DNA from: a virus
Virus record (IMG/VR): IMGVR_UViG_3300042503_001396
Coordinates: 3,738 to 67,737 of that record
DNA: 64,000 bases
Strand: one strand, 5' to 3'
This document shows positions 3,234 through 64,000 of the stretch, piece by piece. Every line of letters starts with the position of its first letter. The first letter of the stretch is position 1. The translations under genes were made by a program, and so were the position numbers. The notes under the pieces were generated by a model. It was not told the origin of the DNA, made no database searches, and saw only the letters and a program-made list of their open reading frames with translations.

Positions 3234-3245
3234 TGGTCTGTTGTT

Positions 3246-3313
3246 GTACGAGAGTATTATAGGGCATCATAGGAAACTTTGAAGTGTCCTTGTGCCAGTT
3301 CTTCAAGTGTCCT
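3246..3313 (-). promoter_or_regulatory. early promoter/stem-loop repeat, copy 5
   Basis: GGACACTTGAAGAACTGGCAC-N30-TATAAT. Confidence 0.75.
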
Positions 3314-3471
3314 CACTTATCCCCCAACTTTACACCTATGTCTTTATCAGTTAGGTCATTATATAAAAGTCTAGCAAAAATAAGGTGTGGTTTTTCTCTT
3401 GTTTCTATTGCGGAACTAGTTGCCACTGCCCAAATTATATCCAGTTCTCTTTTATCAGGTAAAGTCTTCAT
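3313..3471 (-). CDS. hypothetical protein (52 aa)
   Basis: manual translation MKTLPDKRELD...; fills the gap in the operon. Confidence 0.55.
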   Translation of the reverse strand: MKTLPDKRELDIIWAVATSSAIETREKPHLIFARLLYNDLTDKDIGVKLGDK

Positions 3472-3790
3472 CATTTAACTCCACATCATCAGTAAGTTCT
3501 TTAATTCTATCAAAGAAATCTTCATCAAGAGGATATACTTTTTCTTCACCACGATCGATTCTGTCGCACATTTCCATCAGGTACTCAAGAAACTCTTTGG
3601 GAAGGGTTTCATCAAGGTTGATAGAAGTCCAGAACCAATTATAACATTCTTCATATGGGTCATCATTTTTTAAAAGAGCATAGTCCTTATAGTTTCCACT
3701 GATGAGATCTCGCCACATCTTGAAATTGTTTCCAATCTCACGCCAACCAGTTTGCAGGCAGTGACCGAAATAATACTCAAACCAATTCAT
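3455..3790 (-). CDS. hypothetical protein
   Basis: ORF; probable ATG at 3790 (MNWFEYY). Confidence 0.7.
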   Translation of the reverse strand: MNWFEYYFGHCLQTGWREIGNNFKMWRDLISGNYKDYALLKNDDPYEECYNWFWTSINLDETLPKEFLEYLMEMCDRIDRGEEKVYPLDEDFFDRIKELTDDVELNDEDFT

Positions 3791-15727: not shown

Positions 15728-16141
15728 TTATTCATTTAATTGTTTTCTTTTTTTATGATACCCAATTTTTTTATTTAAAGTTTTGTAAGTATCAGTTAAA
15801 GTATGACAATTTGGACATAGTACTCTTAAATTTTCCTTATATCCATTATCTCGGGAACCATTAATGTGATCAATTTCAAGATAAACAATTCCATTTATTG
15901 GATTTGGTTTTCCCCACCCACATTCTGTACATTTATAATTTGCTTCTTCAAGCAAATATTTTCTCACAAAATCACTTGGTCTACCATCTCCCTGTTTTCC
16001 AGTTATTTTTTTAGATAACCAATCAGTGATATTTTGTTTGTAGTAATCTTCTTGCTGGCATTTATTTGAACAATAAAATCCTTTTCCTTGAGATGGGAAA
16101 AAATCGAATGATTTACTGCAGTTTTTACATTGTCCTTGCAT
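15728..16141 (-). CDS. free-standing HNH endonuclease within the tRNA cluster
   Basis: N-terminal Zn-finger CxxC...CSxxC; CTECG...EIDHING...NLRVLCPNCH. Confidence 0.9.
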   Translation of the reverse strand: MQGQCKNCSKSFDFFPSQGKGFYCSNKCQQEDYYKQNITDWLSKKITGKQGDGRPSDFVRKYLLEEANYKCTECGWGKPNPINGIVYLEIDHINGSRDNGYKENLRVLCPNCHTLTDTYKTLNKKIGYHKKRKQLNE

Positions 16142-34220: not shown

Positions 34221-34988
34221 TTAGTCTTCAATTTTAATTCGCAATATAGTATCAATATTTCTTTTTCTTTGATAATTCGAAAGTCCAGGAGCATTTGAAA
34301 TATAACCAGTAACCAAACACTTCCATTTTTGCTTTCCTATATTTTGCCTCTGTTCCTTTGAAAATGCATGAATACCTGTTTTATTTTCATATGCTTTATT
34401 TCCACTAATCTTTCCACCTTTACTTCTTGCTTTATATTTTTCTTCCTTACCTATTCCAAACATTCCTGCATTATTTTCATACAATAATTTTCCATATTTT
34501 TTTCCAAGATTTTGTATATGACCACTTTCAACATTTTTTTGTGCTAATTTTTTACCATTTTTCTGCCTAATTTCTGTAGATACCCCATATATACCAAGTC
34601 CTAATCTTTTTTGAGTTTCTCTACCTTTATTACCATCTTGTACAATTTGTTCTTTTGTTCTTGAATGTATTCCTAACTTATTTTCAACTAATATTTTTGC
34701 TCCCTTTTTACACATTTCTATTGAAATTATTCCTCCACAATTTTCATTCAAACAATTTGGATCATTAATTACCTGTTTAATTAATCTGTTTTCTACATTA
34801 TTTGCATGTTCTCTAGAATCAAATAATTCCAATATTTGTTTTTTTGGTGTATAAAATTCCCAACACCATTTATGAGTTACTGCAGAACCCATATAATACT
34901 CTTCATACTTTTTTTCAGTATGACTACCATAGTAATAATAAGGGACTTCTTCAAAAGTAATTTTATATGTGTATATACGAGGTTGCAT
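34221..34988 (-). CDS. free-standing GIY-YIG (Seg-like) homing endonuclease
   Basis: IYTYKIT...YYYGSH...YMGS...E..LI...CLNEN; basic repeated C-terminal modules. Confidence 0.8.
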   Translation of the reverse strand: MQPRIYTYKITFEEVPYYYYGSHTEKKYEEYYMGSAVTHKWCWEFYTPKKQILELFDSREHANNVENRLIKQVINDPNCLNENCGGIISIEMCKKGAKILVENKLGIHSRTKEQIVQDGNKGRETQKRLGLGIYGVSTEIRQKNGKKLAQKNVESGHIQNLGKKYGKLLYENNAGMFGIGKEEKYKARSKGGKISGNKAYENKTGIHAFSKEQRQNIGKQKWKCLVTGYISNAPGLSNYQRKRNIDTILRIKIED

Positions 34989-42516: not shown

Positions 42517-43067
42517 TAAACCAATCTCCATCCTTTATGTTGTTGTTGTCTTCCTCTACGCAAATCATATATGCAAGAGGGTTTTAAATTGTGTAGTTCA
42601 CAAAATTCATTAATATTGTCACCATTATATATTTCCCCCTTTGGAGACATCAATTTAAACGATTTAACATGTAAGGGAGGTTTTATTCCCATATCTTTAT
42701 TTCGTTTAGAAAGACGATTTTTCGCATCTTCACTCATACCTGGACCCAATACTCTACCCTTGCAGGAATTTCGTATCTTTTCTTTACTTTTTTCAGTATG
42801 TCCAGTAAAGATAGGAGGAGCATCTCCACCATTTGATTTATTGCGAAGAATTCCAGTTCCCAAATCTTTTCTACCAAAAACATTAATCATATAAATTTCA
42901 TGTTTATATGCAGCATCTTCTGTAAGATTATTTTTAAGAATGAGTATTCTGTCTTTTGGTGGAGGAGAAAAGAAATCATGTTTTTGATATGCTCTTCTAC
43001 CTTTACCTTTACCAATATACCATGGAGTTTTATCTTCTCGTAAATAAGCGTAAGTATAATACTCCAT
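42516..43067 (-). CDS. free-standing GIY-YIG-like homing endonuclease (NUMOD3-type modules)
   Basis: YTYAYLRED..P.YIGKG...E..I..FGRKD...L.N...GG; HTEKSKEKI. Confidence 0.8.
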   Translation of the reverse strand: MEYYTYAYLREDKTPWYIGKGKGRRAYQKHDFFSPPPKDRILILKNNLTEDAAYKHEIYMINVFGRKDLGTGILRNKSNGGDAPPIFTGHTEKSKEKIRNSCKGRVLGPGMSEDAKNRLSKRNKDMGIKPPLHVKSFKLMSPKGEIYNGDNINEFCELHNLKPSCIYDLRRGRQQQHKGWRLV

Positions 43068-55407: not shown

Positions 55408-56430
55408 TTATCTTGTTAAATGACCCCCAAACATATACCGCATTCCGTTTAAGATCTTTGCTCCGAACGATCCGAGATTGCGTGAGTTAAATCTTTCAAA
55501 TAGTGCTGTAGTAATAACAGGAGCGGGAACCCCCAAGTCCACAGCGGCAGAAACAGTCCAACGACCCTCACCGCTGTCGGATACGCCTCCAGAGAACTGT
55601 TTAAGGATACCATCCCTGCGTAGCACATCAGCAGTAAGGTCAAGTAACCAAGACCCAACCACACTACCACGACGCCATAACTCAGCAACCTCAGCAACAT
55701 CAATATCATAACAATAACTTTCGGGATCTGCCATTGGGGCAACCTCTGCATCTCCTTCTCTAACATACTGGGCACCTGCATTGGCGTTCTTAATGATGTT
55801 AAATCCTTCTGCATATGCCTGCATAATACCATACTCAATACCATTATGCACCATCTTTACAAAATGCCCTGCACCTGGACCACCACAATGCAACCAACCG
55901 TGTTCTGCAGAAGTTATGTCTGAGTCAAACTGAGTCCTGGGGGCAGCGCCAATTCCTGGGGAGAGTGCATTAAAAATGCGCGAACAAGTGGCGACTGCAG
56001 TATCTCCACCTCCAACCATAAGACAGTATCCACGATCCAGACCGTAAACACCACCACTAGTGCCGCAATCAATATACTGGATGCCCTGCTTTGCAAGTCG
56101 TTCTGCTCTCTTCCGACTGTCTTTAAAATTGCTATTGCCATGATCAATAATAATATCTCCTTCACCACAATATCGTAGTAACTCATTAATCGTCTCCTCT
56201 ACTGTTTCTGCAGGTACAACCATCTGAAAAATACCTGGTTGACCATTCTTTTTAACTACTTTGACAAGATTTTCAATAGTAGTCACAACTCCATTCACAT
56301 ATCCTTTTTCATATGCCTCATTTGCCTTCTCATAATTTCTTCTATAACCCCAGACTTCTATTCCTGCCTTCATCATACGACGAGACATACCTTCGCCCAT
56401 TCTACCCAATCCAATTAATCCTACTCTCAT
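55408..56430 (-). CDS. gnd: 6-phosphogluconate dehydrogenase
   Basis: GLIGLGRMG, IIDHGNS, SGGVYG, GHFVKMVHNGIEY, FGGH. Confidence 0.97.
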   Translation of the reverse strand: MRVGLIGLGRMGEGMSRRMMKAGIEVWGYRRNYEKANEAYEKGYVNGVVTTIENLVKVVKKNGQPGIFQMVVPAETVEETINELLRYCGEGDIIIDHGNSNFKDSRKRAERLAKQGIQYIDCGTSGGVYGLDRGYCLMVGGGDTAVATCSRIFNALSPGIGAAPRTQFDSDITSAEHGWLHCGGPGAGHFVKMVHNGIEYGIMQAYAEGFNIIKNANAGAQYVREGDAEVAPMADPESYCYDIDVAEVAELWRRGSVVGSWLLDLTADVLRRDGILKQFSGGVSDSGEGRWTVSAAVDLGVPAPVITTALFERFNSRNLGSFGAKILNGMRYMFGGHLTR

Positions 56431-56439
56431 TTTTTACTC

Positions 56440-57771
56440 CTATTTTAATTTGAGTGGATAGTCCCACTTAGTAATCAGTTCTGTTTTTTGCCAAGGACCC
56501 CAAACACCTTCATTATAAAGATATGGCATTGTCATAATACGACATTGATCTCCAGTACATAAAAGATCATCAACAATTCTCCAAGATTCCAACACTTCAT
56601 CTGCGTGAACAAAGTGTGATTGGTCTTCATTGATTGCATCATAAAAAAGTTTTACATAACCATCAATTGCTTTTTCTACTGGATAATGATACTGAAGAAT
56701 TGCCGTTTCTACCTTATCATTTAGTCCAGGAGATTTAATATCAATACTCATATCCAAATGTGGATCTGGTTGCAATCTCATTACAATTCTATCATTACAA
56801 TCGTGCCCATCAAATAATTGTTGTGGTGGTGACTTGAATTTAATCACAACCTCAACACAATTTACAGGCATTTTTTTACCCGTCATAAAGTGAAACGGAA
56901 CTCCTTTCCATCTCCAATTATCAACATACAACTCACCAGCAACAAAGGTTGGAGTTTGTGAACCTTGAGTTACTCCTTCCTCATTTTTATAATCATCATA
57001 TTGTCCAAGAACTACATTATCACCCAGTCTAGTCGCAGCAAGAACCTTAACCTTTTCTCTGCGAATTTCTTTAGCATCATTTTTACAAGGAGGTTCCATT
57101 GCAATTAGTGCAAGCACCTGAAGCATATGGTTTTGAAGCATATCTCTGACGGCACCAGCAGTATCATAATACTGGGCACGACCTTCACAACCAATGGTTT
57201 CAGTTGCAAAGATCTGAACTTCTTCTACAAAGTTCCTGTTCCAAAGTGGTTCAAGTAAAATATTGCTAAAACGGGTGGCAAGGATATTATTAACAGTATC
57301 TTTACCGAGATAGTGATCAATGCGATATACTTGTTTCTCGCGTAAATATCCAGCCACCACAGATTGTAAATGATTAGCAGATTGAAGATCGGTGCCAAAA
57401 GGTTTCTCAATAATGACTCTTGATTTTTCTGCGTCATCTAACTTACCTGCCTCTTTTAGATTGGTAATTGCATCAACATATCTTTCTGGAGGAACTGATA
57501 GAAAATAAGTGGTGTCATCATAAGAATCTATCAGTTTTAAAGATTCTAAATCACTCAGGTCACAAGAAACATAATCAAGTCTTTTAATAAACTCTTGAGA
57601 ATAATGCCCTAAAATCTCAACCCAACTCTCCTTACTATGTTTGGTTCTGGAAGCACCAATAATTTTAAATCCTTTTGGTAAAAGATTTTTCTTATGAAGA
57701 GAATAAAGTGCTGGTATAAGTTTCCTTTTGCAAAGGTCTCCAGTTGCTCCAAATATAACTATTGATTTCAT
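56440..57771 (-). CDS. zwf: glucose-6-phosphate dehydrogenase
   Basis: GATGDL, IEKPFG, RIDHYLGK, RDMLQNH. Confidence 0.97.
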   Translation of the reverse strand: MKSIVIFGATGDLCKRKLIPALYSLHKKNLLPKGFKIIGASRTKHSKESWVEILGHYSQEFIKRLDYVSCDLSDLESLKLIDSYDDTTYFLSVPPERYVDAITNLKEAGKLDDAEKSRVIIEKPFGTDLQSANHLQSVVAGYLREKQVYRIDHYLGKDTVNNILATRFSNILLEPLWNRNFVEEVQIFATETIGCEGRAQYYDTAGAVRDMLQNHMLQVLALIAMEPPCKNDAKEIRREKVKVLAATRLGDNVVLGQYDDYKNEEGVTQGSQTPTFVAGELYVDNWRWKGVPFHFMTGKKMPVNCVEVVIKFKSPPQQLFDGHDCNDRIVMRLQPDPHLDMSIDIKSPGLNDKVETAILQYHYPVEKAIDGYVKLFYDAINEDQSHFVHADEVLESWRIVDDLLCTGDQCRIMTMPYLYNEGVWGPWQKTELITKWDYPLKLK

Positions 57772-58430
57772 TCTTTTTGATTATCAATAACGGTTTCCCA
57801 ATCCTTCTGAAAGAGTTCTAGACCCTTATCAGTCATAATGTTCTTATACATTGCCCAGAATACAACTGGAGGAATTGTAACTACATCAGCACCAGAAAGA
57901 GCAGATTGTTCTACCTGTCTTACATCACGAAGAGATGCGGCAAGAATTTGTGTTGATGTTCCCGAATAATCAAATGCCTTACGAATGTTCTTGATAAGTT
58001 CAATTCCATCAATTGAATTATCCATCCAACGACCAACGAAAGGTGAGATGAATGTTGCTCCTGCTTTAGATGCAAGAATTGCTTGTGCTACTGAGAACAC
58101 TAGGGTTACATTGACTTGAATTCCTTTATCAGAAAGAAACTTGCAAACCTTAAGTCCTTCTACGGTACAAGGAACTTTAATTGTAACTGCTGGTGCAATT
58201 GTATAAAATTTTTGTGCTTGTGAAAGCATTTCTTCGGCAGTATCTGCAACAACCTCTGCTGAAATGCTTTCTAAATTTGTAAATGTTGTGGAAATTTCTT
58301 CAATAACTTCTTGGAGTTGTCTACCACTTTTAAGAATCAAAGTGGGATTTGTAGTAACTCCATCTAATAGTCCAGTCTCATATGCTGGACTAATCATTGA
58401 AACATCTGCTGTATCTAAAAAGATCTTCAT
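57768..58430 (-). CDS. talC: transaldolase (TalC/MipB type)
   Basis: FLDTAD, GVTTNP, IKVP, NVTLVFS, SPFVGR; ATG at 58430. Confidence 0.95.
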   Translation of the reverse strand: MKIFLDTADVSMISPAYETGLLDGVTTNPTLILKSGRQLQEVIEEISTTFTNLESISAEVVADTAEEMLSQAQKFYTIAPAVTIKVPCTVEGLKVCKFLSDKGIQVNVTLVFSVAQAILASKAGATFISPFVGRWMDNSIDGIELIKNIRKAFDYSGTSTQILAASLRDVRQVEQSALSGADVVTIPPVVFWAMYKNIMTDKGLELFQKDWETVIDNQKE

Positions 58431-58482
58431 AAAAAAGTAAGAACTCATTTGTAATTATAATGAGTTCTTACTAAGGTGTTAA
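58431..58482 (-). promoter_or_regulatory. talC promoter inside a 14-bp hairpin with U-tail
   Basis: TTAACA-N17-TATAAT; arms AGTAAGAACTCATT/AATGAGTTCTTACT. Confidence 0.65.
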
Positions 58483-58508
58483 ATTTTGTTATGAATTGAA
58501 AACATTAT

Positions 58509-59213
58509 TCAATATTTTTCAAGGGCATAGATTCCATTTTTTTCCACAATTGCAGAGCAAGTATCACACCAATCACCACAGCACATATACAAAAGTTTAT
58601 TAAAGTATCTAATGTTGCCGTGATGTATATGCCCACAGATTACACCATCATATTTCTTATCTCTTTGAATACAATATGATGCAATATCAGTCTCATATTG
58701 GTTAATATAATTTTTTCCTCTCACCGTATTCTTTAACGCATAGACTAAAGAAAATTTAAAGAACTTCTCTAACCAAAAACTGAGTGGTGTGATGAATTCA
58801 TACCCTTTATTAAAGATAAGTTGTTTCCAAGACCCAGAAGAATACTCCGAATACTTATCTCCATGAATACACAAAAACTTATTACCTTTTGAATCTTTAT
58901 GAGTATATTCGTCTACCATTCGGAAGTTCTTGTGTTCAAAATTAGTATAACGACGAATTTCTGCTTCGTGATTTCCAAGAATATAAATGACTTCTGTTCC
59001 TTTCTTTGCCAGGTTTAGAATCTGATGAACACATTTTGTATGTTCTTTTGTCCAACGAGTATTATATTTTTCCATACAGTGAATATCAATAATATCACCA
59101 ACCAATACTAACTTTTTGGTTTTTAAGTTTTTAAGAAAATTATAGAATTTTTCCGTATTACATCTAGGAGTCCCAAGGTGAACATCAGAAATAAAAACTG
59201 TATCGTAAGTCAT
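58509..59213 (-). CDS. metallophosphoesterase (LpxH-like)
   Basis: SDVHLG, GDIID, GNHE, HGD, GHIH, GDW. Confidence 0.85.
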   Translation of the reverse strand: MTYDTVFISDVHLGTPRCNTEKFYNFLKNLKTKKLVLVGDIIDIHCMEKYNTRWTKEHTKCVHQILNLAKKGTEVIYILGNHEAEIRRYTNFEHKNFRMVDEYTHKDSKGNKFLCIHGDKYSEYSSGSWKQLIFNKGYEFITPLSFWLEKFFKFSLVYALKNTVRGKNYINQYETDIASYCIQRDKKYDGVICGHIHHGNIRYFNKLLYMCCGDWCDTCSAIVEKNGIYALEKY

Positions 59214-59215
59214 AA

Positions 59216-59377
59216 TCAGAATCTTGATGGAGTGTATTCCATATCTTCAAGAATATTATCTAGTATCTCCCCATATTCTTTGAATCGTTTGTCTCCTGCA
59301 ATAAAACGACGCTGACGCATCCATACTGCATCAGCAAGAAGTTTGATTTGCTCTTCTGTAAGAGTTAAGGTTTTCAT
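59216..59377 (-). CDS. hypothetical protein
   Basis: ATG at 59377 (MKTLTLTEEQ). Confidence 0.65.
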   Translation of the reverse strand: MKTLTLTEEQIKLLADAVWMRQRRFIAGDKRFKEYGEILDNILEDMEYTPSRF

Positions 59378-59418
59378 AAGTAAGAAGTAACTGTTGTATG
59401 TATTAGAGATTTTTTTTC

Positions 59419-59538
59419 TCATTCATAAATCATCCCAACAGTCAGTAAGACAAAGCAAAGTACGGTGAATACCATCATACCTACACCTGCCCAGATTATC
59501 CAGTTAGGCATAGGTTCGTTTTGGGTATTATGACTCAT
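59419..59538 (-). CDS. single-helix membrane peptide (39 aa)
   Basis: MSHNTQNEPMPNWIIWAGVGMMVFTVLCFVLLTVGMIYE. Confidence 0.55.
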   Translation of the reverse strand: MSHNTQNEPMPNWIIWAGVGMMVFTVLCFVLLTVGMIYE

Positions 59539-59539
59539 A

Positions 59540-59689
59540 TTAAGGAATCCAAATTCCTTTGCCTTTCAACCACTTCATTGCACTTTCCAAATCACCATTT
59601 GTTTTTTGGAGTGCCACACAACAATCCATTCTTCCCACTCCAGTTTCCCACTGAAGTTTTTTTACTAGTTTATAAGTAATTGCAGTCAT
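59540..59689 (-). CDS. EF-Ts N-terminal (UBA-like) domain mini-protein (49 aa)
   Basis: MTAITYKLVKKLQWETGVGRMDCCVALQKTNGDLESAMKWLKGKGI aligns without gaps to the EF-Ts N-terminus; TTGACA-N17-TAAAAT upstream. Confidence 0.7.
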   Translation of the reverse strand: MTAITYKLVKKLQWETGVGRMDCCVALQKTNGDLESAMKWLKGKGIWIP

Positions 59690-59735
59690 AATTCTTTGCG
59701 GTTTATGAGTATTTTAGTGGGGTTGGGGTCTTATG

Positions 59736-60458
59736 TCAAGGTGTGTTGGATTTTGTTTTGCCAGTATTAACTTCCTTAGTTCTCTCTATAATTTTATCTC
59801 TACAAATACCTTCACCATAATTTGGATTATTTTCTCCAGACCAAGCACCCCTTTCTTTTGCTTTTTGAGATACTTTGTCCCTTACTTCTGGATTTTCCAT
59901 AGGATTTCCATAATCATTCCTATGCCTTATACCAACATTCATTTCATCTAAAGATTTTCTAATCCAAACCATTCCACATCCAAGAATTGATTTTATTTCT
60001 CTTAGTGTTTTACCCTCAGTATAAAGTAGAGCAATTTTTTCTGGTGGGTATTTTTTTCTCAACTCCTTTATTTTATTTTCATTCACTACTTGTAAATGAT
60101 TTTTCGCTTTCATTATTTTACTATGATTTGGTCTCTTCTTTCCTCTACGCATATCTCCCATTTTTTTCCTTTGTTCTTCCGTATAAACATATCCAGAGGG
60201 ACCATCTCCACCATCAGTTAAATTATACAGAATACCAGTTCCCAAATCTTTTCTACCAAAGACATTAATCATATAGATTTCGTGCTTAAATGCTTCTTCT
60301 TCTGTAAGATTTTTCTTTAAGATTAAAATTCTATTCCTTGATGGAACATAAGCACTATGTCTTTTTCTATCATATGCTCTTTTGCCTTTACCCTTACCAA
60401 TATAATAAGGAGTTCCATCCTCTCTCAAATAAGCATAAGTATAAAATACATTTTTCAT
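59736..60458 (-). CDS. free-standing GIY-YIG-like homing endonuclease (NUMOD3/HTH modules)
   Basis: YTYAYLREDG.PYYIGKG; paralogue of 42516; GENNPNYG module; TATAAATA late promoter. Confidence 0.85.
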   Translation of the reverse strand: MKNVFYTYAYLREDGTPYYIGKGKGKRAYDRKRHSAYVPSRNRILILKKNLTEEEAFKHEIYMINVFGRKDLGTGILYNLTDGGDGPSGYVYTEEQRKKMGDMRRGKKRPNHSKIMKAKNHLQVVNENKIKELRKKYPPEKIALLYTEGKTLREIKSILGCGMVWIRKSLDEMNVGIRHRNDYGNPMENPEVRDKVSQKAKERGAWSGENNPNYGEGICRDKIIERTKEVNTGKTKSNTP

Positions 60459-60496
60459 TACTTCTATCCCAAAGTTAGTTCTATACTTATTTATAC

Positions 60497-60521
60497 AAAA
60501 AAGGAACCCCGAAGAGTTCCC
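60497..60521 (-). terminator. psbA terminator
   Basis: GGAACTC-TTCG-GGGTTCC-T6. Confidence 0.85.
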
Positions 60522-60548
60522 TTATTATACCATTATTTTGATTTTATA

Positions 60549-61628
60549 TCAACCGATAGTTGGTGCAGTTAGAGCAACAGGAGTTGCTTCAACGGCTGCC
60601 AAATCCAAAGGAAAATTATGTGCGTTTCTTTCGTGAATTACTTCAAATCCCAAGTTTGCTTTTCCAAGAACATCTGCCCAGGTTGGAATTGGACGACTTT
60701 GTGTATCAAGAATGCTTTGTTGGAAATTAAATCCGTTCAGGTTGAACGCCATCGTAGAAACACCAAGAGCGGTGAACCAGATGCCTACAACTGGCCAGGC
60801 AGCAAGGAAGAAGTGCAGACTACGACTATTGTTGAAGGAAGCATATTGGAAAATAAGACGACCGAAATAACCGTGAGCAGCAACGATGTTATAAGTCTCT
60901 TCTTCTTGACCGAACTTATAACCGTAGTTCTGTGACTCATTCTCAGTGGTTTCACGAACCAGAGAGGAAGTAACCAGAGAACCGTGCATAGCACTGAACA
61001 GAGAACCACCGAACACACCAGCAACTCCAAGCATATGGAAGGGGTGCATCAGAATATTGTGCTCTGCCTGGAACACAAGCATGTAGTTAAAAGTACCAGA
61101 GATACCCAGAGGCATTGCATCAGAGAAAGAACCTTGACCGAAAGGATAGACCAGGAACACTGCACTCGCAGCAGCAACAGGTGCGCTATAAGCAACCATA
61201 ATCCAAGGACGCATACCTAGACGGTAAGATAGTTCCCATTCACGACCCATATAGCAGTAGATGCCGATGAGGAAGTGGAAGACAACAAGTTGGAAAGGTC
61301 CACCATTGTAAAGCCATTCATCAAGACTTGCTGCTTCCCAGATGGGATAGAAGTGAAGTCCGATTGCGTTAGAAGAAGGAATAACAGCACCAGAGATGAT
61401 GTTGTTTCCGTACATTAGAGAACCAGCAACTGGTTCACGAATGCCATCAATGTCCACAGGGGGAGCACCGATGAATGCGATGATGAAACAAGTAGTTGCT
61501 GCAAGAAGGCAAGGCACCATCAATACACCAAACCACCCCACATAGATGCGGTTGTCTGTTGAAGTAATCCAAGAACAGAATTGTTCCCAAGTATTTGATT
61601 GTCGTTGTTGTGAAAGTGTAGCAGTCAT
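60549..61628 (-). CDS. psbA: photosystem II D1 protein
   Basis: full-length D1; Y161, D170, E189, H190, H332, E333 and D342 present; no intron. Confidence 0.99.
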
Positions 61629-61639
61629 TTTTGTTAAGA

Positions 61640-61800
61640 GAGTTAGATAAAAGTTCGGGGGGACGAACCGTTAGTATTATTCCCCACAGCACCCTCCACT
61701 GTGGGTATGAGAGACATCTTTTACTTGCCTAGTCTCGGTGAGGAGTTTCGTCCCTTTTCGGCAAGAACTTGTGTTAAGAACCTGTTACATTTCTTAACCC
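61640..61800 (-). ncRNA. structured psbA leader (PhotoRC-II-like), copy 1
   Basis: CTTGCC/GGCAAG stem, GAGAC/GTCTC pseudoknot, CCCACAG...CTGTGGG hairpin. Confidence 0.65.
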
Positions 61801-61807
61801 GTTGTTG

Positions 61808-61841
61808 TATTTATCATAACACTTCTCCTTTGGGAAGTCAA
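61808..61841 (-). promoter_or_regulatory. psbA sigma70 promoter overlapping a late promoter
   Basis: TTGACT-N17-TATGAT merged with ATAAATA. Confidence 0.75.
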
Positions 61842-62323
61842 GTGGTATATTGATTAACTCCTCTTATGTTTCCACCTCTTTGCTCACACCCCTTTTTTGG
61901 TCCTGATTTGAGATGTAGTTCATAACCAAACTTTGAGCACTCACTAATTGCTCTTTTTACTTGGTGTTCTTTTAGACCAAGTAAATCAGCAACTTCTTTT
62001 CTTGATAATCCTGATTGACGATATTTAAGAATAGAAAGTTCTTGTTGTGTTGGTTCAGTTTTCTTTGGAGGTTTGCCTCTTTTTTCAGTTGAGTTTCCTT
62101 TGCTTTTCTTTGCCCAGTTGATTGCTTGTTTATCGTGAATGAGTTTATGAGTTGCTGGATGATAAACATAAAGATGCTCTGGAATGTTTCTACCACCTTC
62201 ACATCTTGGTGGATTATGATGAACATCAATACACTTCATCTGTTCATCAGTAAGTCCATAATGTTCTTGGGCAACCTTGCGATAGTTATACTTATCAGTA
62301 GAAAGAACAATAGCAGAGCACAT
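61838..62323 (-). CDS. HNH endonuclease with C-terminal HTH
   Basis: DVHH..P...GG.N...HL...H...H; LSRKEVADLLGL; likely ATG at 62323. Confidence 0.75.
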   Translation of the reverse strand: MCSAIVLSTDKYNYRKVAQEHYGLTDEQMKCIDVHHNPPRCEGGRNIPEHLYVYHPATHKLIHDKQAINWAKKSKGNSTEKRGKPPKKTEPTQQELSILKYRQSGLSRKEVADLLGLKEHQVKRAISECSKFGYELHLKSGPKKGCEQRGGNIRGVNQYTT

Positions 62324-62327
62324 AAAA

Positions 62328-62365
62328 AACTCCAAACCTACTATTATTTAGGTAGGTTTGGAGTT
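62328..62365 (-). promoter_or_regulatory. RBS-sequestering hairpin with a late promoter in the loop
   Basis: AACTCCAAACCTAC-CTAAATAATA-GTAGGTTTGGAGTT. Confidence 0.8.
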
Positions 62366-62397
62366 GTAATGAAGTTTATGTTAATATTTTGTAATAA

Positions 62398-62565
62398 TCA
62401 AAAATTTAACCCCTTAAATCCATCAATAATAGTTTTTAAATGTCCCTCGGCACTTTCTATATTAGAACCGGTTTTCTTTATTAATTCCATCAATTCATCA
62501 TAACTTCTTCCAGATATTTCTGGGTCAAGAGGAACAGATTTGATAAATTCTTCTCTAGTAATCAT
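62398..62565 (-). CDS. hypothetical protein (55 aa)
   Basis: manual translation MITREEFIKSVPLDPE... Confidence 0.5.
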   Translation of the reverse strand: MITREEFIKSVPLDPEISGRSYDELMELIKKTGSNIESAEGHLKTIIDGFKGLNF

Positions 62566-62592
62566 AAGTATTAAAAAATTATTTTAGTAAGA

Positions 62593-62862
62593 TTAATGTT
62601 TCATCCATTCACCATTTTCAACATCCCAATGCCTTCTATCATAAACTTGAAAATTAACAGTTGTGAAAAATAGTGAAATACTAGTCCAAAGTCCTGCGTG
62701 GTCTGTTTTGATAGTATATTTAAAATCAACTCCAAACAAAATATTATCTCTATTTACTTCAAATTCCCAGAACTTATGTTTAAGTGGAGTTTTGCCAGAA
62801 ATAAAATAAATGTTTTTAAAGTTGTCTATTGGCAGTTCAATTTTAAAATTTACTATAATCAT
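62593..62862 (-). CDS. hypothetical protein
   Basis: likely ATG at 62862; the upstream extension overlaps the RNA motif. Confidence 0.6.
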   Translation of the reverse strand: MIIVNFKIELPIDNFKNIYFISGKTPLKHKFWEFEVNRDNILFGVDFKYTIKTDHAGLWTSISLFFTTVNFQVYDRRHWDVENGEWMKH

Positions 62863-62889
62863 TATTTTTATAAATAAATGACGGTTATA

Positions 62890-63043
62890 ATATTCCCACA
62901 ACACCCTCCATTGTGGGTATGAGAGACGTTCTTATACACCCATAGGTCTCGGTTAACGGGTGTTTGACAATGTTAAGAATTATGAGGAATCCTTAACATT
63001 TGTTTACCTATTTATCATAGCACTGCTCGATTTCCCTGTCAAG
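62890..63043 (-). ncRNA. promoter plus PhotoRC-II-like leader, copy 2
   Basis: TTGACA-N17-TATGAT/ATAAATA; ACACCC/GGGTGT stem, GAGAC/GTCTC, CCCACAA...TTGTGGG. Confidence 0.65.
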
Positions 63044-63203
63044 CCCTGTACTCATCGATTTTATCCAAGACTTTATTGAGATACTGGTGAGCAAGATGCT
63101 TTGGATCATAACCAGATTTATCCATCCACTCTTTATCCAAGTCTCTTTTTATTTTAAGAACCTCACACTTTATAATTTCCTTACTCAAATATCCTTTGGA
63201 CAT
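63039..63203 (-). CDS. hypothetical protein (54 aa)
   Basis: manual translation MSKGYLSKEIIKCEVLK... Confidence 0.6.
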   Translation of the reverse strand: MSKGYLSKEIIKCEVLKIKRDLDKEWMDKSGYDPKHLAHQYLNKVLDKIDEYRA

Positions 63204-63261
63204 ACAAAAAAAAAAACTCTGCCCCTTATTTAGAGACAGAGTGAAAATATGTTAAGTGTTA

Positions 63262-63381
63262 TCAAAAAATTCCAGGAATTACTTGCCCAGTAACAAGATA
63301 TGAACCGACAGCAGCAACGAATCCAATCATTGCAGCCCAACCATTAATACGTTCCGCTTTTTCAGTAAAAAGATTTTTCAT
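63262..63381 (-). CDS. hli: high-light-inducible protein
   Basis: AERINGWAAMIGF...TGQVIPGIF. Confidence 0.9.
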   Translation of the reverse strand: MKNLFTEKAERINGWAAMIGFVAAVGSYLVTGQVIPGIF

Positions 63382-63542
63382 TTTGTTTCTCCTCTTTTAG
63401 TTGTGTTTTGAATAACAATAAATTTGTCTTTCTTTAAGGTTCCTGCGATGCAAACTTTAAGTTCATCATCATTAGACCAGGCACCTTCTTCTACAAGTTG
63501 TTGAAGGGCAAGACTAAGTTGCCCAAGCATTCCAGCACTCAT
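63378..63542 (-). CDS. hypothetical protein (54 aa)
   Basis: manual translation MSAGMLGQLSLALQ...; coupled on both sides. Confidence 0.6.
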   Translation of the reverse strand: MSAGMLGQLSLALQQLVEEGAWSNDDELKVCIAGTLKKDKFIVIQNTTKRGETK

Positions 63543-63628
63543 CAGTAAGTTTCTGCGACTTTCTCTACAGCATAACCCAGAAGTACGAAAAATGCAACTG
63601 CAGTGAGTGTGAAGATTACTTCAGTCAT
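63542..63628 (-). CDS. small membrane peptide (28 aa)
   Basis: MTEVIFTLTAVAFFVLLGYAVEKVAETY; TGATG coupling. Confidence 0.55.
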   Translation of the reverse strand: MTEVIFTLTAVAFFVLLGYAVEKVAETY

Positions 63629-63837
63629 CAGAATACACCGAAGAAGAAGTTACCAGTAGCAACATAAGACACAATACCAGCAATAAACCCTAGCATTGCC
63701 CAACGTCCGTTTGCAAGTTCTGCACGTTCGCTGTGTGTCATCATACCATATTTGATGGCATCTTCATCAGAGATGTACATCTTGGGTTCGCGAGCAAACA
63801 TATTCATTTGCCCACGCTCATTGGTCGTTACAGTCAT
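63628..63837 (-). CDS. hli: high-light-inducible protein
   Basis: AELANGRWAMLGF. Confidence 0.92.
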   Translation of the reverse strand: MTVTTNERGQMNMFAREPKMYISDEDAIKYGMMTHSERAELANGRWAMLGFIAGIVSYVATGNFFFGVF

Positions 63838-63862
63838 TATCTTTTGTAAAGATTTACAACAG

Positions 63863-63899
63863 AATTATATAGCAAAAAGAAAGGGGTGTCAAGCACCCC
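63863..63899 (-). promoter_or_regulatory. terminator hairpin overlapping the hli promoter
   Basis: GGGGTG-CTTGA-CACCCC-TTTCTTTTT; TTGACA-N17-TATAAT. Confidence 0.75.
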
Positions 63900-64000
63900 C
63901 CCTCCTCATTCATTTACCCTCAAATCCTGGCGGTAGTGTCCCAAAGTACGGATCATAATCAAAGATTGAATTCCAATCTTGAATATTTGGAGAATCGTTT

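Follow-up and report, generated by a model that had tools for sequence, protein, structure and literature searches.

A psbA-like leader in front of a phage homing-endonuclease-like gene as a candidate bind-but-not-cut operator

Why should a nuclease gene begin with what looks like a piece of the gene next door? The question is raised by a locus in a 64-kb stretch of viral DNA (hereafter the window; 64,000 nucleotides (nt), IMG/VR record IMGVR_UViG_3300042503_001396, positions 3,738 to 67,737), in which all genes of the locus lie on the minus strand and a free-standing homing-endonuclease-like gene follows psbA, the gene for D1. The nuclease gene is preceded by a short leader that begins 5 bases after the T4-type late-promoter motif TATAAATA, reads RTNFGIEVM in frame, and resembles codons 323-331 of psbA (Table 1). 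We propose that this leader is an operator of the I-TevI type, which the nuclease would bind but not cut, and that it also reveals the target of the enzyme. Judging from sequence comparison, we put the probability of this reading at roughly 0.58. An earlier note on this DNA had offered much the same interpretation; the positions it gave, its RTNFGIEVM translation and its count of 19 identities in 27 were all correct, and the interpretation now appears partly supported and strengthened by comparative data.

The match between the leader and psbA is real and above chance within psbA, but modest taken alone. Compared as a fixed 27-mer, the leader is identical to the resident gene at 19 of 27 positions (60662-60636), which is the single best place on both strands of that gene. 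Nowhere else are even 17 identities reached, and 10 of 2000 shuffled leaders attained 19. Against psbA of Prochlorococcus phage P-HM1, an allele picked through psbA similarity and independently of the leader, the best place is the same site with 21/27, a score that none of 2000 shuffles reached (shuffle maximum 20). Since the P-HM1 allele is closer than the resident one, the proposal that the leader echoes the canonical D1 sequence RANLG(M/F)EVM was borne out. Additionally, 80 intron-free viral psbA alleles, from at least 120 matching IMG/VR contigs, agreed with four leader variants at 19-24 of 27 positions, 17 of which were fixed by the allele pattern itself. The core of the leader is AACTT..GAAGTAATG. 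A blastn search of isolated phages with the 51-nt promoter-leader stretch, a query too short for this tool, returned neither psbA nor a related leader.

Because the window match alone is modest, the weight of the argument is carried by related loci. Twelve contig stretches (L003-L014; L numbers denote related contigs) encode nucleases that are 84-92% identical to that of the window and fall into four sequence types. In all 12, the gene comes immediately after psbA and is preceded by the terminator type of the window, TATAAATA and the leader, which differs at few positions. The leaders of these orthologues matched psbA with p values of about 0.007, 0.003 and 0.02, always at psbA nt 973-992. Moreover, psbA is broken by a group I intron in every one of the 12 loci. 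The intron follows nt 1002 (between HER and NAH) in six of them, where it is near-identical to the intron of S-PM2, and nt 1011 (between NAH and NFP) in the other six; these sites lie 9 and 18 nt beyond the copied stretch. The copied stretch thus adjoins psbA intron sites in 12/12 orthologue contigs, and it also adjoins a recombination break in the psbA of the window itself. An intron that interrupts the nuclease target, the feature that defines collaborative homing, is absent from the window psbA, where the group I intron model RF00028 found no match in 56000-64000 at E<=0.1, and is present in all 12 orthologue loci. The window therefore looks like the nuclease-only state of a collaborative homing system.

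A further set of loci shows which part of the protein the leader accompanies. In L143, L145 and L146, the protein behind psbA has only the helix-turn-helix (HTH)/NUMOD3 module in common with the window nuclease, at 43% identity to residues 141-235; the module is N-terminal there and is followed by a 112-amino-acid (aa) C-terminal part without assignment. These genes are nevertheless preceded by the leader AACTTTGGTATAGAAGTTGTG, with a GTG start at the equivalent place, and the intron in their psbA lies at nt 992, right where the copied stretch ends. The leader is thus conserved at 18/21 positions or better between proteins whose common module is only 43% identical. As these loci keep the leader with the module alone, the leader follows the DNA-binding module and not the catalytic domain.

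The window psbA is a mosaic, and its seam lies next to the copied stretch. From psbA nt 1000 to the promoter it is identical to L097-L099 (Table 1), whereas the 90 nt just upstream (60630-60719) differ from the same contigs at 35 positions. The recombination break consequently falls at psbA nt 999/1000, between the copied stretch, which ends 6-7 nt earlier, and intron site 1002, which follows 3 nt later. Homology to L097 stops again at 60483-60489, at the promoter, where the nuclease cassette starts. L097-L099 are the nearest nuclease-free relatives; their intergenic strings are identical to those of the window, and the cassette stands in place of a 65-aa open reading frame (ORF) that occupies their slot. 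That nuclease-free slot contains neither the leader nor a pseudo-target, and a psbA-like half-site behind the nuclease gene was looked for and none was found, so that the mimic belongs to the cassette. The leader departs from psbA right after the ATG, the point at which psbA goes on into the intron-site stretch. Nucleotides 868-1050 are the most variable part of these psbA genes, with 8-11 mismatches per 30 nt compared with 4-6 elsewhere. Within the window, psbA at 60630-60760 is at most 70-74% identical to that of any isolated phage and encodes odd D1 residues (GK for NR, I for M); this divergent stretch could be an escape from nucleases or come from a foreign donor. The intron-less-plus-nuclease state is real and recurrent, as contigs from two other lake metagenome runs match the junction without difference (X2, 60267-60669; X3, 60229-60591) and 17 metagenome runs contain at least half of the sampled words. 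Near-identical DNA for 59700-60900 occurs in many lake-water metagenome runs from 2020-2024 under several study codes, and the source phage looks like a freshwater cyanophage.

The predicted architecture of the nuclease is I-TevI-like, with a GIY-YIG domain, a linker, and an HTH/NUMOD3-like part. It was derived from an AlphaFold model built from 50 relatives (mean predicted local distance difference test score 69), in which residues 73-89 and 110-124 form low-confidence linkers. In VIA-align comparisons, residues 1-73 matched 9u75 (Z 6.4, root-mean-square deviation (rmsd) 2.7, 68 aa), UvrC (1ycz, Z 5.2) and the catalytic domain of I-TevI (1ln0, Z 5.2, rmsd 3.2, 67 aa). These Z values are middling and the GIY-YIG fold call depends on them: sequence-only support is weak (PDB phmmer E 0.4; Pfam LEM-3_GIY-YIG E 0.047), and Foldseek gave no match at E<=0.001. 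The window protein has Y6, Y8, Y18, Y19, G21, R27, H59, E60 and N79, each of which is either invariant in the 50 relatives or conserved in at least 90% of them; counterparts of the catalytic Tyr, Tyr, Arg, Glu and Asn of I-TevI-type enzymes may be among these residues. The protein is one member of a large cyanophage family marked by the N-terminal motif YTYAYLREDGTPYYIGKG; of its relatives, 261 were confirmed and 80 retained. Kinship with F-CphI, the Endo VII enzyme of S-PM2, was not upheld. The window nuclease has no match to PF02945 (Endonuclease_7) at E<=0.01 or E<=5, while nine nucleases of the same slot score 4e-17 to 2e-26, and it shows the GIY-YIG fold and HTH instead. In one metatranscriptome library, a 188-nt contig lies within the nuclease ORF (59840-60027, depth 3), although it may be DNA. 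No metatranscriptome RNA contig covers the leader, and contigs of this kind cannot reveal a transcript start.

Several observations concern this nuclease and its relatives. The window contains further nuclease-like genes at 15728-16141 (-), 34221-34988 (-) and about 42699-43061 (-), the last being a 59% identical GIY-YIG paralogue without TATAAATA. L003-type contigs (L003-L005 and L014; locus 3237-3494) have a second copy of the GIY-YIG N-terminal part, 74% similar, right after the first gene. In L006 and L007, a base change creates an open frame that begins at an ATG before the terminator and continues across the leader, yielding a 267-aa ORF.

Do other nucleases in the same position carry copies of their own targets? 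We surveyed 76 loci with a psbA 3′ end, comprising 47 distinct intergenic regions, and found at least eight nuclease types in the slot behind psbA. Introns, mapped by spliced alignment with representatives confirmed by Rfam, fell into 11 site classes (nt 180, 318, 408, ~546, ~644, 750, 890, 992, 1002, 1008 and 1011). Of the 39 distinct intergenic regions that precede nucleases, 28 have the motif TATAAATA no more than 58 nt from the start, compared with 2 of the 8 that precede non-nuclease genes. In the F-CphI family, which comprises S-PM2 and eight further loci, the leader TTATGCACGAAAGAAA matches psbA nt 989-1004, spanning site 1002, and in more distant members the match extends up to nt 1011; an intron sits at site 1002 in 8/9 of these loci. 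An HTH family with a weak T5orf172-like C-terminal part has the leader AAAGTAACCGTGAGCAGTAA, which matches nt 746-765 in inverted orientation at 19/20 positions, and site 750 is occupied in 14 of 17 contigs. The leader of a 173-aa Endo VII family matches nt 873-890, again inverted, with site 890 occupied in 29/31. A 203-aa family without assignment has a leader containing ATGGAAAGTTATG, an exact 13-mer found inverted at nt 1009-1021 of an intron-less allele. In that family, 36 of 40 loci have an intron at site 1008 and the remaining four are too short to judge; TGGAAAGTTATG is retained in 39 of 40 despite differing upstream terminators.

When the families were tested jointly, the best leader match fell within 20 nt of the intron site of its own locus in five of nine (P = 4.6e-4, the 20-nt tolerance having been picked after the data had been seen). 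Place and score together were reached by 0, 0, 0, 1 and 0 of 250 shuffles in the five families, and eight non-nuclease genes in the slot gave p values of 0.26-1.0. Each mimic begins 0-7 nt after TATAAATA; the copies occur in either orientation, and at least two families carry a 1-3-nt insertion or deletion relative to psbA. In one intron-encoded ORF type (219-225 aa, sites 548/556), exon-like sequence immediately precedes the promoter, with a match of 17/19 in L015 (1/500 shuffles) and a weaker result in L112 (21/500 shuffles). The broader expectation that nuclease leaders resemble neighbouring genes was not borne out in related loci outside the slot. Among 41 related GIY-YIG loci, leaders scored 11.6 against their own flanks and 10.3 against the flanks of other loci, an excess that comes mainly from an inverted repeat about 50 nt upstream rather than from neighbouring genes. 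The leaders of two other TATAAATA-led nuclease-like ORFs in the window (34221-34988 and 15728-16141) had no convincing match in adjacent genes.

We speculate, at somewhat less than even odds, that many phage homing endonucleases, free-standing ones included, label themselves with a promoter-proximal copy of their own target, and that cyanophage psbA is an arena of at least 11 intron sites and at least eight nuclease families in which each nuclease is tied to its own site. The folds spanned would be GIY-YIG, Endo VII, the HTH-plus-T5orf172-like type and the 203-aa type without assignment. Cyanophage psbA is in any event very rich in group I introns, with five in the partial gene of L013 and three within the last 90 nt in L015, and several long psbA introns in the related contigs (L003-L265) carry LAGLIDADG-like, HNH-like or other ORFs. 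As a separate observation, in a 142-144-aa Endo VII family behind psbA (L156, L125 and L116), a perfect inverted repeat around TATAAT replaces TATAAATA. Its arms contain GAAGTTATG, the letters of the psbA E-V-M codons, which was not significant in tests; the repeat may be a palindromic operator.

On the basis of these comparisons, we provide a putative mechanism for the window nuclease. The natural target would be intron-less psbA around nt 967-1011. The DNA-binding part of the enzyme would read the ANLG(M/F)EVM codons, and the catalytic domain would cut near intron sites 992, 1002 and 1011, at a distance of a few to about 20 nt downstream; introns at these sites would protect their carriers because the cut falls a short distance downstream. 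The introns of the relatives and the mosaic break at 999/1000 are indirect cues that element-free alleles may be cleaved in this region. The same DNA-binding part would also recognize the 27-nt copy between the late promoter of its own gene and the start codon. Since this copy continues into the nuclease ORF and not into the psbA sequence that would be cut, we propose that binding occurs there without cutting. The bound protein would then block initiation at its own promoter, resulting in autorepression.

Several results weigh against this operator reading. With a local +1/-1 score against a panel of 14 alleles, the window leader reached a p of only about 0.11 (34/300 shuffles); its local score of 13 is the weakest of its family, its gapped score was equalled in 54/200 shuffles, and when the whole window is scanned, other places equal the psbA site as the best non-self match (score 12). 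A second place in psbA, nt 700-727, fits the family leaders almost as well as the main site (12-14 versus 13-16), and for the leader of L146 it fits better (15 versus 14). The late promoter proposed in the earlier note is favoured by the motif and its position and gains nothing from motif frequency, since TATAAATA occurs eight times in the window and at least eight times in 23/100 shuffles, which is no enrichment. The nuclease of L015 is 80% identical to that of the window, DNA-binding part included, and yet has another leader, of a hairpin type that it has in common with L022. Nor is it obvious that the resident allele is resistant to the enzyme: of the 14 alleles, its site is the closest to the orthologue leaders (18/20). 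If the leader marks the binding site, an intron-less window psbA with a well-matching site fits poorly with self-immunity; any such immunity would have to lie in the downstream part of the target or come about through low expression.

The survey adds objections of its own, beyond the late choice of its tolerance. Four of the nine free-standing families tested (A2, F, G and L100) show no mimic near intron sites. No convincing mimic was seen in HNH-type L167, L107, L148 and L139, whose psbA has no visible intron and which stood outside the joint test, and five of six intron-encoded ORF types show none; gapped local alignment uncovered no mimics in the families that lacked them. Furthermore, the mimics of the 173-aa family and of the 219-225-aa intron-encoded family form one arm of an inverted repeat around the promoter and would also fit an RNA hairpin.

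How else might the resemblance have arisen? One explanation, which we regard as unlikely, is that the ORF once lay inside psbA, for instance within a site-992 intron, where it continued the frame of the preceding exon and started at Met331, and later moved behind the gene together with about 27 nt of exon, so that the leader is a decaying relic without function. This would account for a copy that runs in the direction of psbA, shares the reading frame of the ORF and has its ATG at the codon corresponding to Met331. The introns of L143, L145 and L146 lie exactly at nt 992, and the exon-like sequence upstream of the intron-encoded ORF of L015 provides a parallel. However, a neutral relic should have decayed, whereas the leader keeps at least 18/21 positions across a module that is 43% identical. 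Besides, the copies always abut the promoter, with no second half-site behind the gene, and in three other families the copy is inverted and cannot be a co-linear exon remnant. The idea in the earlier note of a relic left by duplication of the psbA 3′ end could hold for the window family and does not fit those three. Improbable to a slightly greater degree is control at the RNA level, in which the leader RNA pairs with an upstream arm or with a read-through psbA exon and keeps the ribosome site hidden up to the point at which late transcripts begin within the structure, as in the hairpin scheme of T4, or in which an antisense RNA over the leader, similar to CfrI, cross-talks with psbA mRNA. 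In many of the 41 related GIY-YIG loci (L016-L081), the leader does have a complementary arm about 50 nt upstream and TATAAATA lies between the two, which is the T4 ribosome-site-hiding scheme. Repeats of this kind are also present in the 173-aa family and in the 219-225-aa family encoded within introns. An inverted mimic is complementary to psbA mRNA, and in the S-PM2 record CfrI extends from exon 2 of psbA as far as the start of F-CphI (PMC2984593). However, the window and F-CphI families have a same-sense copy, which does not pair with psbA RNA, and the window has no upstream arm, the gap being occupied by the terminator. In the 203-aa family the leader stays constant while the resident exon varies, and it matches the foreign allele L101 at 13/13 positions compared with about 8/13 for a typical resident exon (compared by eye). 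Pairing also gives no reason for copies at intron sites. In the 173-aa and intron-encoded families, an operator and an RNA hairpin may nevertheless both be present.

Two further explanations have much lower odds. It is very improbable that the copy is an aid to recombination, priming the copying of the nuclease gene from a broken psbA end, or the scar of an invasion that entered at a pseudo-target. The cassette edges coincide with homology breaks, and invasion by an endonuclease gene has been proposed for I-TevII in the accessible text of PMC3984707. Against this, the break already has full psbA homology next to it, DNA would be misjoined by inverted copies, no half-site is present in the downstream flank, the empty slot of L097-L099 is without a pseudo-target, and the leader travels with the gene across differing intergenic backgrounds. 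Least probable of all is a chance resemblance aided by the ribosome-site-like GGA/GAAG run and AT-rich composition of the leader. Chance would explain the panel result for the window leader, the tie in the whole-window scan and the second similar place in psbA. It hardly explains the absence of any shuffle at the P-HM1 level, the low p values of the orthologue leaders (0.003-0.02), or five families that match their own intron sites, one of them with an exact 13-mer.

The operator reading has a well-described precedent. According to the portion of PMC2988022 available, the I-TevI operator is identical to the homing site at 15/20 positions, overlaps the late promoter and is cleaved about 100-fold more poorly; the self-repression of I-TevI through a homing-site-like operator is therefore as the earlier note had it. 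That text describes target-like operators for three T4 intron-encoded enzymes, with experimental proof for I-TevI and proposals covering I-TevII as well as I-TevIII. The window nuclease resembles I-TevI in having a GIY-YIG domain with a separate DNA-binding part and, at its own late promoter, a sequence that resembles the putative homing site (19/27 for the resident allele, 21/27 for P-HM1) without the cut sequence. It differs in being free-standing, whereas I-TevI is intron-encoded, and in the placement of the copy, which follows TATAAATA closely and extends into the start codon, whereas the I-TevI operator overlaps its promoter. In addition, no zinc-finger motif was noted in the window linker when the translation was inspected by eye, and the pattern in the psbA slot recurs in unrelated catalytic families.

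The arrangement also recalls collaborative homing by F-CphI of S-PM2, where a free-standing nuclease lies behind psbA after the same terminator type and TATAAATA (PMC6083498, PMC5931967) and where, in the available part of PMC5931967, the intron interrupts the F-CphI recognition sequence. Six orthologue loci of the window family have the S-PM2-type intron at the same site. However, F-CphI is an Endo VII enzyme and the window nuclease is of the GIY-YIG type; the F-CphI leader copies codons 330-337 and the window leader codons 323-331, and the window has no intron. Similar to the Seg and Mob nucleases of T4, the window gene is an optional nuclease gene between conserved genes, of a kind that cuts the neighbour in genomes without it, with homology breaks at the cassette edges; in contrast, the operators described in the portion of PMC2988022 available belong to intron-encoded enzymes only. 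Many related cyanophage GIY-YIG genes have the T4-type translational hairpin whose arms flank a late promoter, as in I-TevI, whereas the window gene has a terminator in the space of the upstream arm. A term search of the F-CphI paper PMC6083498 found no mention of operator, autoregulation or repression, and a full-text literature search for autoregulation of free-standing homing endonucleases through a homing site at the promoter matched only a T4 review. Within the partial texts that our literature search covered, no target-like leader was described for psbA nucleases, and a remark in the primary F-CphI/psbA papers (2009, 2010) is possible. Purified F-CphI and a band-shift assay exist, the 60-bp substrate being given in the supplement, according to the available text of PMC6083498.

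Table 1. Features of the psbA-nuclease locus in the window
Feature	Position	Strand	Remarks
psbA (D1)	60549..61628	-	359-aa uninterrupted ORF; Pfam Photo_RC 3.9e-89; presumed target gene of the adjacent nuclease
psbA nt 967-993 (codons 323-331, KANLGFEVI)	60636..60662	-	AAAGCAAACTTGGGATTTGAAGTAATT; stretch resembled by the leader; presumed binding part of the target
140-nt tract (psbA nt 1000 to stop plus intergenic DNA up to the promoter)	60490..60629	-	0 mismatches to nuclease-free L097-L099
Intrinsic-terminator-like hairpin and T run, 3′ of psbA	60500..60523	-	
TATAAATA, T4-type late-promoter motif	60488..60495	-	also left edge of the nuclease cassette
psbA-mimicking leader, proposed operator	60456..60482	-	AGAACTAACTTTGGGATAGAAGTAATG; 27 nt; last 3 bases are the nuclease start codon
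Nuclease cassette (leader, nuclease gene and ~190 nt downstream including a 49-aa ORF)	59543..60482	-	blastn versus L097, L003 and L008
Free-standing homing-endonuclease-like gene, 240 aa	59736..60458	-	PHROG homing endonuclease match
Predicted GIY-YIG domain, residues 1-73	60240..60458	-	VIA-align on the model
NUMOD3-like stretch, residues 89-112	60123..60194	-	17.2 bits, below the cut-off of 20.4
Predicted HTH, residues 127-178	59925..60080	-	VIA-align, Z ~5-5.8 to HTH DNA-binding folds

The leader and the resident psbA copy of the same stretch are separated by 180 nt. The terminator-like hairpin in this interval is of a type that also stands behind psbA in S-PM2 and many related contigs. 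Over the psbA stop codon, at 60524-60552 (-), there is a strong sigma-70-like promoter (TTGATA, 17 nt, TATAAT; 11/12, with TG) that points into the hairpin, and a TATAAT before the hairpin recurs across many related intergenic regions. Upstream, two PhotoRC-II RNA motifs (RF01717) lie at 61669-61776 (-) and 62882-62975 (-), with 54.8 and 80.7 bits; the one is just upstream of psbA and the other 1.1 kb further up, with an HNH-like/HTH ORF (61838-62335) and two small ORFs between them. The pair may be a duplication made by another nuclease insertion. Elsewhere in the window, TATAAATA stands 5-45 nt upstream of just two other ORFs, a Cys-rich one of 137 aa and one of 255 aa starting MQPRIYTYKITFEEVPYYYY.

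If phage homing endonucleases do label themselves with target copies, the sequence by itself would disclose both their target sites and the introns with which they are partnered. Should the leader prove to be an operator, a target mimic would be a common means of self-repression among free-standing nucleases of several folds, beyond the three intron-encoded enzymes of T4, and the leader would be a cheap predictor of the target of an uncharacterised homing endonuclease. Predictions of this kind would be useful for mapping gene flow among phages and for finding new sequence-specific nucleases. In that case, the nucleotide and amino-acid diversity of the D1 C-terminus and the many introns of psbA would also be tied to competing selfish nucleases.

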